From a virus (Monodnaviria > Loebvirae > Hofneiviricota > Faserviricetes > Tubulavirales > Inoviridae): a stretch of 10,506 bases of DNA. How positions within the stretch are numbered: the stretch's first letter is position 1; each line of letters opens with the position of its first letter. The notes beneath the pieces were generated by a model, which did no database searches, was not told where the DNA came from, and saw only the letters and a program-made list of their open reading frames with translations. The DNA is taken from the IMG/VR virus record IMGVR_UViG_2619619131_000001; one strand, 5' to 3'. Below, piece after piece: positions 5,673-7,262 of the stretch. A program made the position numbers and the translations under genes.

Positions 5673-7262
5673 TTGATTCACTTTATTATTCCGCTTCTGT
5701 TTTTGTTCTTTTCCTCGTTTTCTTTCGCTGAAGAGAAAGAAAATCCGGATGCACTTGTTCAGTGTGCAGGCCATTTATCCTGCAGGACAGATTATTCGGA
5801 CGCGGGGACGTCGATTAAATTAGCCAGGGCGGCCGGTCATCTTTTCTGTGGTTCGGGCAATTATGACGCATGTTCCGGAATAATTCATTATTGTGGTGTG
5901 CCACTTTCAACGCCTGTTAATGCACCTTCGACTGTCGGGTCTTTTGTCCGTGCCCGGTGGTCAGCATATAAAGTCTGGGATTCAGACAAGCAAAAGTGGA
6001 CAGCCTGCACCCTTGCTTTTCAGGGTGGTGAGGGGGATTTGACACCTGAATATAATAAGCCGCCAACTGACGAGATTTGTCTTTCTCGTCCGGTTCTTGA
6101 TGGTATGACTTTTTCTGATGTTTATAAAGGTGATGACGGGACCCGTTATGTTAATGTGCAGGGGTGTATTTATGAGGCAACCGGCAATCCTCTTATTTGT
6201 AATCCCGATGATGATACAGTTTGTACTGCCGACTGGAAACCAGTTGCTGTAGATCCTGCATTCTCCGATGGTAAGGAGGATGGCGGTAGCTCAGGTGGTG
6301 GCAGTTCCGGTGGTGGTAACCCAGGCGGCGGCAGTTCCGGTGGTGGTTCAGGTTCTGGCTCCGGTGGTTCATCCGGTAGCGGTGGCTCCGGCTCGGGTTC
6401 CGGCGGCTCATCCGGCAGTGGTGGTTCAGGTTCTGGCTCCGGTGGTTCATCCGGTAGCGGTGGCTCCGGCTCGGGCTCCGGCGGTTCATCCGGTAGCGGT
6501 GGCTCCGGCTCGGGCTCCGGCGGTTCATCCGGTAGCGGTGGCTCCGGCTCGGGCTCCGGCGGTTCATCCGGTAGCGGTGGCTCCGGCTCGGGCTCCGGCG
6601 GTTCATCCGGTAGCGGTGGCTCCGGCTCGGGCTCCGGTGGTTCATCCGGTAGCGGTGGCTCCGGCTCGGGCTCCGGCGGTTCATCCGGTAGCGGTGGCTC
6701 CGGCTCGGGCTCCGGCGGTTCATCCGGTAGCGGTAGTTCAGGTTCAGGATCCGGTGGCTCATCCGGCGATGACAATGGCTGGCTTGATGGTATTTTGGGC
6801 TGGTTAAAAACAATATGGGTGTCAGTGAATGATTTAAATAATGCTTTTTCTGTTTCTCAGGCTGATATGAATAATGCATTAAATTCACTGGACAATGGTA
6901 TTAAAGATATTAGTCAGAATATAGCTTCTTCTTTGCCTGATGGGGATTTCCCTTTAGGGGAGCTTTCGCATTATTTGCCAGGACAGGGAAGTGATAGTCA
7001 TGATAATAACAATTGGCTTACAGTTAATATTGACAAACTGGTAAATACAAATAATGGAACTGCTCTTCCTTTTACTTTACAGTTTAGCTTTAATCTTCCG
7101 TTGATTGGCGCGATTAATTTCAAGATTGATACAAGCCATTTTGCAAAAGCTTATGACGATTATGTTCGTTCTGTTCTTGAATATGCTATTTATATGATAA
7201 CCATGTTACGCGTTTTTGTTATTTCTCGCCGTACATTATTTGAACGTGAGGTAAAACTCTGA
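5673..7262 (+). CDS. Minor coat / adsorption protein (pIII-like) with Gly/Ser-rich linker
   Basis: Long ORF with hydrophobic N-terminal signal (FIIPLLFLFFSSFSFA), Cys-containing N-terminal domains, a ~160-aa Gly/Ser repeat linker and a C-terminal hydrophobic anchor (YAIYMITMLRVFVISRR). Start is non-ATG: TTG 5673 lies 8 nt after AGGAG (5660-5664); in-frame GTG 5664 is the alternative. Confidence 0.85.
   Translation: MIHFIIPLLFLFFSSFSFAEEKENPDALVQCAGHLSCRTDYSDAGTSIKLARAAGHLFCGSGNYDACSGIIHYCGVPLSTPVNAPSTVGSFVRARWSAYKVWDSDKQKWTACTLAFQGGEGDLTPEYNKPPTDEICLSRPVLDGMTFSDVYKGDDGTRYVNVQGCIYEATGNPLICNPDDDTVCTADWKPVAVDPAFSDGKEDGGSSGGGSSGGGNPGGGSSGGGSGSGSGGSSGSGGSGSGSGGSSGSGGSGSGSGGSSGSGGSGSGSGGSSGSGGSGSGSGGSSGSGGSGSGSGGSSGSGGSGSGSGGSSGSGGSGSGSGGSSGSGGSGSGSGGSSGSGGSGSGSGGSSGSGSSGSGSGGSSGDDNGWLDGILGWLKTIWVSVNDLNNAFSVSQADMNNALNSLDNGIKDISQNIASSLPDGDFPLGELSHYLPGQGSDSHDNNNWLTVNIDKLVNTNNGTALPFTLQFSFNLPLIGAINFKIDTSHFAKAYDDYVRSVLEYAIYMITMLRVFVISRRTLFEREVKL
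6366..6755 (+). repeat. Tandem array of about 10 copies of a 39-bp unit (GGTTCATCCGGTAGCGGTGGCTCCGGCTCGGGCTCCGGC) encoding GSSGSGGSGSGSG within the pIII-like gene
   Basis: Units start at 6366, 6405, 6444, 6483, 6522, 6561, 6600, 6639, 6678 and 6717. The copies at 6444-6638 are identical and the outer ones are slightly diverged. Gly/Ser-rich sequence begins around 6283. Confidence 0.9.

Follow-up and report, generated by a model that had tools for sequence, protein, structure and literature searches.

The stretch of DNA analyzed here (the window; 10,506 nucleotides, IMG/VR record IMGVR_UViG_2619619131_000001) is a piece of Escherichia coli chromosome in which hipB and hipA (positions 1-1589) are followed by an inovirus prophage integrated at dif. 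The prophage genes are arranged in the order Rep (Phage_GPA), small open reading frames (ORFs), a repeat-bearing gene, a 119-aa ORF, Zot and secretin, and this order is identical in all related prophages that we examined. The repeat-bearing gene, which we refer to as gene III, is the subject of this report. It sits after the small ORFs, which are of coat-gene size, and before the pVI-like, Zot/pI and secretin/pIV genes. We interpret the 39-bp tandem repeat that it contains as a variable-number tandem repeat (VNTR) in the disordered Gly/Ser linker of a g3p/pIII-type attachment protein, in which a single unit type, denoted C, was amplified from one copy to seven, and we assign this interpretation a probability of about 0.75.

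The first-pass annotation of the window had described the product as a pIII-like protein for adsorption that contains a Gly/Ser linker, and this identification is well supported by sequence matches and by gene position. Pfam Phage_Coat_A (PF05357) matches residues 129-174 of the 532-aa ORF called by the program, with 35.5 bits against a cut-off of 20.8. Residues 132-195 match the g3p N1 domains of fd/M13, IKe and If1 (PDB 1tol, 4eo1, 2g3p, 8b3o and 2x9a), with E values from 1e-12 to 2e-7. The only hits of a tblastn search of phage records were to gene III in IKe, If1, I2-2 and the Erwinia PEar phages; they cover the same ~70 residues and have 38-44% identity (41-44% for the N1-like domain against IKe, If1 and I2-2). 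The PHROG families "attachment protein" and "virion structural protein" match the protein as well. We also aligned the gene with 12 E. coli prophage homologues. The 532-aa program ORF opens at a GTG at 5664. In every annotated relative, the start codon is the TTG that corresponds to 5673 (MIHFII/MIRFII...), and the 529-aa product from this codon is the version recorded for the source assembly.

The protein is predicted to be modular. It begins with a hydrophobic segment from which we infer signal peptide cleavage, followed by an N-terminal domain of ~105 aa that has no Pfam or PDB match. This domain recombines independently of the N1-like domain behind it, and it may be the primary-receptor-binding module. 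The linker of 162 aa consists of 88 Gly, 72 Ser, 1 Asn and 1 Pro residues. In an AlphaFold2 model built from 43 homologues (overall pLDDT 43.9, pTM 0.26), which we used only to contrast the linker with the N1-like domain, residues 199-368 have a pLDDT of ~30 and no secondary structure. The model was too poor overall for a fold search. The C-terminal domain carries W/L/D motifs that are conserved across the 43 homologues, as well as the second hydrophobic maximum of the protein (residues 498-518, followed by RR), and predicted helices, including residues 499-528, lie in this low-confidence part of the model. Neither the PDB search nor tblastn against phage records linked the sequence of this domain to the C-terminal domain of a known g3p.

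Tandem Repeats Finder (TRF) reports the dominant array at 6342-6766, with a period of 39, 10.9 copies, 91% matches, no indels and a score of 689. In the register that starts at 6342, which is in frame with the ORF at 5664-7262, ten units extend to 6731, every one of which translates to GGSGSGSGGSSGS. An eleventh, degenerate unit (T) follows, after which the repeat ends. The number of about ten 39-bp units given in the first-pass annotation is therefore right, whereas its extent of 6366-6755 falls slightly short of the true array (6342-6770). At the nucleotide level there are three unit types among the ten (A, B and C; Table 1), which vary at nine sites, all of them third codon positions. Direct reading of the three unit sequences reveals that the 5' half of C is like B and its 3' half like A, which makes C a hybrid. 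The 39-nt periodicity is perfect over 6444-6637 (194 nt), and the sole deviation within the run of C units is the C>T change at 6638. The nucleotide identity claimed earlier for 6444-6638 thus holds up to its last base, at which it fails.

To establish how much of this identity follows from the repeated peptide, we resampled synonymous codons 5000 times for the identical peptide. The longest run in which each base matches the base 39 nt downstream is 155 nt in the window, compared to a mean of 12 nt and a maximum of 27 nt in the resampled sequences. Four adjacent unit pairs are identical, and none occurred in the 5000 resamples. This indicates that the nucleotide identity far exceeds what the repeated peptide alone would give. 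The array has a G+C content of 70%, compared to 41% in the remainder of the gene.

To place the array among its relatives, we searched 5,426 complete E. coli genomes by megablast and found the gene in 19 of them; the prophage family adjoins hipA in many. Linkers were typed in 24 gene III copies from 17 genomes. The nearest relative, E. coli strain 100416, has the prophage at the hipA/dif locus in two copies arranged in tandem, and its gene differs from that of the window by four substitutions in 1356 aligned nucleotides and one 234-nt (6 x 39) gap. The array of 100416 reads A-B-A-C-T (four units) and that of the window A-B-A-C×7-T (ten units). No relative has more than one C unit per array. 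With A-B-A-C and A-B-A-C×7 present in near-identical genes, one unit appears to have been amplified recently in the lineage of the window, in agreement with the recent expansion proposed at first pass. The other arrays of the 13-aa unit contain five units (B-A-B'-A'-C, A-B'-A-B-A and B-A-A-B'-A), and the only adjacent duplicate outside the window is one A-A pair, in strain AST205. The comparator arrays, of four to five units, are perfectly periodic at 78 nt and not at 39 nt. Thus, the ancestral array appears to have consisted of two synonymous unit versions that interrupt each other, an arrangement expected to resist slippage, and the C run of the window presumably represents a derived, perfect and slippage-prone state. 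The pair of alleles would provide a clean natural case of an interrupted, slippage-resistant array turning into a perfect, slippage-prone one.

Table 1 Features of the prophage and of the attachment-protein gene (positions in the window)
Feature	Position	Strand	Sequence, basis or remark
dif-like attachment site	1667-1697	+	GGTGCGCATAATGT-GACACGCG-TTATGTTGAAA; just downstream of hipA; hipA-proximal prophage end
Phage_GPA-type replication protein	2479-4581		
g3p/pIII-type attachment (minor coat) protein gene, 529 aa	5673-7262	+	Pfam, PDB and PHROG matches; 12-homologue alignment
Signal peptide (predicted)	5673-5729	+	MIHFIIPLLFLFFSSFSFA; most hydrophobic 19-aa window (Kyte-Doolittle 2.0); conserved in homologues
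N-terminal domain, aa 20-125	5730-6047	+	AlphaFold2: beta structure, pLDDT 50-73
g3p N1 (TolA-binding)-like domain, ~aa 126-200	6048-6272	+	PDB and tblastn matches; pLDDT 71-85
GGGSS-type repeat, linker start	6281-6347	+	GGSSGGGSSGGGNPGGGSSGG; 15/30-bp period; TRF period 30, 2.2 copies
Unit A	starts 6342 and 6420	+	GGTGGTTCAGGTTCTGGCTCCGGTGGTTCATCCGGTAGC
Unit B	start 6381	+	GGTGGCTCCGGCTCGGGTTCCGGCGGCTCATCCGGCAGT
Unit C	seven copies over 6459-6731	+	GGTGGCTCCGGCTCGGGCTCCGGCGGTTCATCCGGTAGC
39-bp units 1-3 (A, B, A)	6342-6458	+	mutual differences synonymous only; ancestral 78-bp A/B super-repeat
C run, lineage-specific amplification	6459-6731	+	6/7 copies identical; fifth (6615-6653) with synonymous C>T at 6638
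Degenerate terminal unit T	6732-6770	+	GSSGSGSGGSSGD; kept in all relatives with a 13-aa-unit array
C-terminal domain with hydrophobic segment, ~aa 499-521 (nt 7167-7235)	6771-7262	+	putative anchor
Alternate-frame/antisense ORF, not a gene	6170-6775	-	periodic low-complexity translation
Alternate-frame/antisense ORF, not a gene	6193-6888	-	periodic low-complexity translation
Alternate-frame/antisense ORF, not a gene	6268-6807	+	periodic low-complexity translation
Zot/pI-like gene	7639-8850		
Secretin/pIV-like gene	9298 to window end		

These comparisons suggest how the long allele may have arisen. The ancestral array would have been a synonymous A/B alternation with an effective period of 78 bp, closing with the B/A-hybrid C and then the degenerate T. 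An in-frame amplification would then have raised the number of C copies from one to seven, adding 234 bp and 78 aa. The most likely cause would be slipped-strand mispairing as the DNA replicates, or unequal recombination of sister or tandem copies of the prophage, and two identical neighbouring units would make further slippage easier. The product would be the same protein, with a linker of 162 instead of 84 aa joining the N-terminal modules for receptor and TolA binding to the C-terminal virion anchor, giving a longer flexible tether from the receptor/TolA-binding head to the virion. This change of linker length is probably tolerated rather than required. We favour slippage or unequal recombination because the indels comprise whole units (30, 39, 78 and 234 nt), the flanks are identical or almost so and the changes fall only in the linker. 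The comparative side of the slippage or recombination proposed at first pass is borne out by these whole-unit, linker-confined indels, whereas the process itself is read from them and not observed. In the same sense we infer the mechanism, its near-neutrality and the exact number of units that the living strain carries. A phase-variable on/off contingency locus was considered and rejected: the unit of 39 nt equals 13 codons, and gains or losses of 30, 39, 78 or 234 nt keep the frame. Since the unit is a multiple of three, the length of the linker changes and the frame never does.

Several observations weigh against the amplification reading. The window derives from a draft whole-genome shotgun contig (assembly GCA_000704665.1, JNRL01000033.1), and a perfect repeat of 194 nt cannot be sized by reads shorter than ~230 nt, so that the count of seven C units, and hence of ten units in all, is unverified. 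Intermediate alleles with two to six C units were found in none of the E. coli genomes, JGI metagenomes or GTDB representative genomes. Finally, folding four C units as single-stranded DNA gave no marked hairpin (z = -1.8, unstructured centroid), and therefore we do not invoke secondary structure to account for slippage. A scan of the window against Rfam found no RNA family.

The foremost alternative is that the C run is an assembly artefact, in which the true count is ~4-5 units and the assembler cycled through the repeat too often. The draft source fits this explanation, as does the end of the window, ~58 nt before the contig end. All 13 of the other arrays from E. coli assemblies have four to five units with at most one adjacent duplicate, and the array on four JGI metagenome contigs assembled from short reads stands at 1, 3, 3 and 5 units, so that counts differ between assemblies. 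A C-C junction occurs nowhere else in the JGI metagenome contigs or the GTDB representative genomes; the latter also lack the junction of the terminal unit with the C-terminal domain. However, the usual error of short-read assemblers is to collapse a tandem repeat, not to inflate it. Two contigs, one of them JNRL01000033.1 (58.6 kb), carry a call for the exact 529-aa protein; on JNRL01000033.1 the locus is identical to window positions 2673-10262. Moreover, the synonymous change at 6638 lies inside the run, which is not expected from a pure cycling artefact, and the reading frame is intact. We consider an artefact of this kind unlikely, and the general risk of mis-assembly of the array from short reads, raised at first pass, is plausible but not proven. 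For common E. coli dif-site prophages, this means that short-read assemblies cannot reliably size or type gene III.

The claim that linkers in this family vary in length does not depend on the window. Copy number had been predicted at first pass to differ between isolates, and the comparison across homologous prophages bears this out: in isolate genomes, an array of the 13-aa unit contains 4, 5 or 10 copies. The four metagenome contigs, which share the junction between linker and C-terminal domain, differ in 78-nt steps, which could reflect either true deletions between identical units spaced 78 nt from each other or collapse in assembly. Three mutually unrelated repeat flavours occupy the same position in the protein, namely the 13-aa unit, a GGGSS/GGGNS type with 15/30-bp units (26-130 aa) and a GGSSGGSTS type with a 27-bp unit (111-161 aa), so that the other flavours span 26-161 aa in isolate genomes. 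To extend the comparison, we retrieved 117 homologues from a collection of 5.8 billion proteins with the linker-less protein as query, labelled E. coli in every case that had a name. Linker length in this set runs from 19 to 114 aa, and linkers of the GGGSS/GGGNS type differ mostly by steps of 5 aa. Variation is also seen within one strain. In the tandem dif prophages of E100341 (L014 9227-10561 and 17727-19091), the two gene III sequences, aligned over 1335 positions, differ by a 30-nt indel and nine substitutions and are otherwise identical; every difference lies in the linker, and the substitutions suggest reshuffling of units rather than simple slippage. The tandem copies in 100416, AST205 and TD225-C4 have identical gene III within each strain. 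Taken together, these sequence comparisons show linker-length polymorphism to be family-wide, independently of the window's own unit count. One consequence is that protein clustering of these attachment proteins is driven by linker length over the receptor-binding domains.

Such pervasive polymorphism, arisen independently in unrelated flavours of 13-aa, 5-aa and 9-aa units at one protein position, could also be taken to mean that linker length is adaptive, tuning receptor-TolA reach or host range, with the long allele favoured in this host. The conservation of the peptide, with all nucleotide differences between units synonymous, would fit this, and host specificity was raised as an untested possibility by the authors of PMC7307601. 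However, synonymy is weak evidence of selection here because the third positions of Gly and TCN Ser codons vary freely. No correlation with any host trait appears in the present data, and the linker of IKe, as PMC7307601 relates the work of Bruno and Bradbury (1997), diversified without any effect on fitness being seen. Selected length tuning therefore seems improbable to us, more so than an artefact of assembly.

The linker is also low-complexity DNA, and its Gly and Ser codons leave several frames stop-free, which accounts for three further ORFs across the array. Their translations are, in the order of Table 1, the periodic strings PEPEPEPP-LPDEP, HRYRMNRRSPSRS and VAPARAPAVHP; we reproduced the translations noted at first pass (PEPEPEP and HRYRMNRR) and found them purely periodic, in line with the view taken there that they are artefacts of the repeat. 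That they are real overlapping proteins, rich in Pro/Glu or Arg/His, whose maintenance preserves the repeat can be rejected as very improbable: although both strands have open frames of 179-231 aa and PGAP annotated an equivalent antisense ORF in strain 2015C-4136CT1, the strings are low-complexity and start and end with the repeat, the other flavours and unit numbers in relatives would give entirely different alternate-frame products, and in 2015C-4136CT1 gene III itself is split where the antisense ORF is annotated. In the RefSeq record of that strain, gene III (L020 5664-7040) appears as a partial pseudogene fragment and a separate C-terminal coding sequence (CDS) instead of an intact gene, and a hypothetical protein is called from the antisense ORF in its 27-bp repeat (WP_062865521.1; 5990-6553, minus strand). 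This illustrates the predicted hazard: an annotation pipeline may break gene III into pieces or report antisense ORFs over the repeat that are spurious.

Textbook accounts of Ff phages describe g3p linkers made of glycine-rich repeats; Ff g3p has two of them, built of EGGGS/GGGS units, and N1 as its first domain. The G1/G2 linkers of Ff (fd/M13/f1) g3p resemble the linker described here in that flexible Gly/Ser-rich repeats tether N-terminal receptor/TolA-binding domains to a C-terminal anchoring domain, and the domain that precedes the linker in the window is homologous to Ff N1 (1tol, 2g3p, 1g3p; E = 1e-12 to 1e-10). In contrast, the window protein has a single long linker with a 13-aa unit, and its N1-like domain comes second, behind the unrelated N-terminal domain. 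Beyond the N1-like domain, neither tblastn against phage records nor the PDB search revealed similarity to Ff.

A parallel in behaviour is found in the UPφ phages (Lineavirus-like, from Enterobacterales), which likewise are E. coli filamentous prophages at dif and often in tandem. Gene III of UPφ exists as 95 protein variants among 229 genomes, which differ mostly in how many glycine-rich (GGGES) repeats they have, and laboratory isolates were found whose sole difference was one GGGES repeat (PMC7307601). The unit is GGGES in UPφ, compared to 13 aa in the window. UPφ is ~50% identical to IKe and I2-2, and the core genes of the group share ~70% amino acid identity (PMC7307601, Virus Evol 2020). 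Membership of the window phage in UPφ/Lineavirus (IKe, I2-2) is not supported: the whole window had no megablast match among 50,697 phage records, the 41-44% identity extends over ~70 aa only, and Rep is of the Phage_GPA type, with UPφ itself compared by description. For IKe, the account of Bruno and Bradbury (1997) given in PMC7307601 states that the linker diversified within few laboratory generations with no detectable fitness effect, host range not having been examined. To the extent of that account, IKe gene III resembles ours in that its glycine-rich region diversifies rapidly as repeats are gained and lost, at no evident cost to fitness; it differs in being a laboratory observation on a non-integrating phage, whereas our data are comparative genomics of prophages.

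In size and organization, the phage resembles Ypfφ of Yersinia pestis and CUS-1 of E. coli K1 by description, although membership is not established. The features in common are a unit of ~8.7 kb integrated in tandem at dif, a CTXφ-like order of modules and small ORFs in reverse orientation upstream of rep (PMC4266046). Length variation of g3p linkers is thus already known. What differs here is the phage lineage, the 13-aa/39-bp unit and the unusually clean amplification from one to seven copies; the current understanding of g3p linkers is unchanged, and the finding would not come as a surprise to a specialist.

The modules that flank the linker have independent histories. Across the related loci L001-L022, nucleotide identity to the window varies independently from 37 to 99% in the N-terminal domain, from 57 to 100% in the N1-like domain and from 51 to 100% in the C-terminal domain. 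In L003, the three values are 99.5%, 57% and 54%, and in L001 they are 82%, 58% and 99%. The linker of the window is itself chimeric. It begins with the GGGSS-type motif, which accompanies the window's N1-like allele elsewhere, in homologues with a GGGSS/GGGNS linker, and continues with the 13-aa repeat, which elsewhere accompanies its C-terminal allele. Because the linker joins two flavours and its flanking modules have independent histories, the low-complexity DNA might serve as a crossover point for the exchange of receptor-binding and virion-anchor modules. Together with slippage that tunes tether length, this would make the linker DNA a device for evolvability, an idea that we put forward tentatively and regard as doubtful. 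The mosaic around the linker does suggest where filamentous phages swap receptor-binding domains.

The remaining observations concern the prophage as a whole. The dif-like site was recognized by eye; both of its arms are like those of E. coli dif and its central region is longer, and an exact search for dif that allowed up to three mismatches found nothing. Tandem prophage units in related genomes start exactly at the equivalent of window position 1667. The site and these unit starts would fit XerCD-mediated integration at dif. A second chromosomal site for the phage family lies away from dif, between hcxB and ybiB (L001 2947-12217 in E100341; also L004-L012). Copies at this site have an IS110-family transposase gene directly upstream of rep and a DUF2726 gene after the secretin gene, an arrangement that suggests an alternative, possibly transposase-mediated, route of integration. 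The interval between Zot and secretin (8850-9298) differs from that of the closest relative (100416, L013 16277-17037). It contains a 107-aa ORF on the plus strand of the window (8840-9163), while the source assembly calls a 39-aa gene on the minus strand and strain 100416 a 225-nt CDS on the minus strand. Signs of prophage decay are seen in E300010, where a 1-nt deletion truncates the annotated gene III (L004 3009-4424), and in TD225-C4, where one of at least three tandem copies has a split Zot/pI gene (L016 2550-3721).

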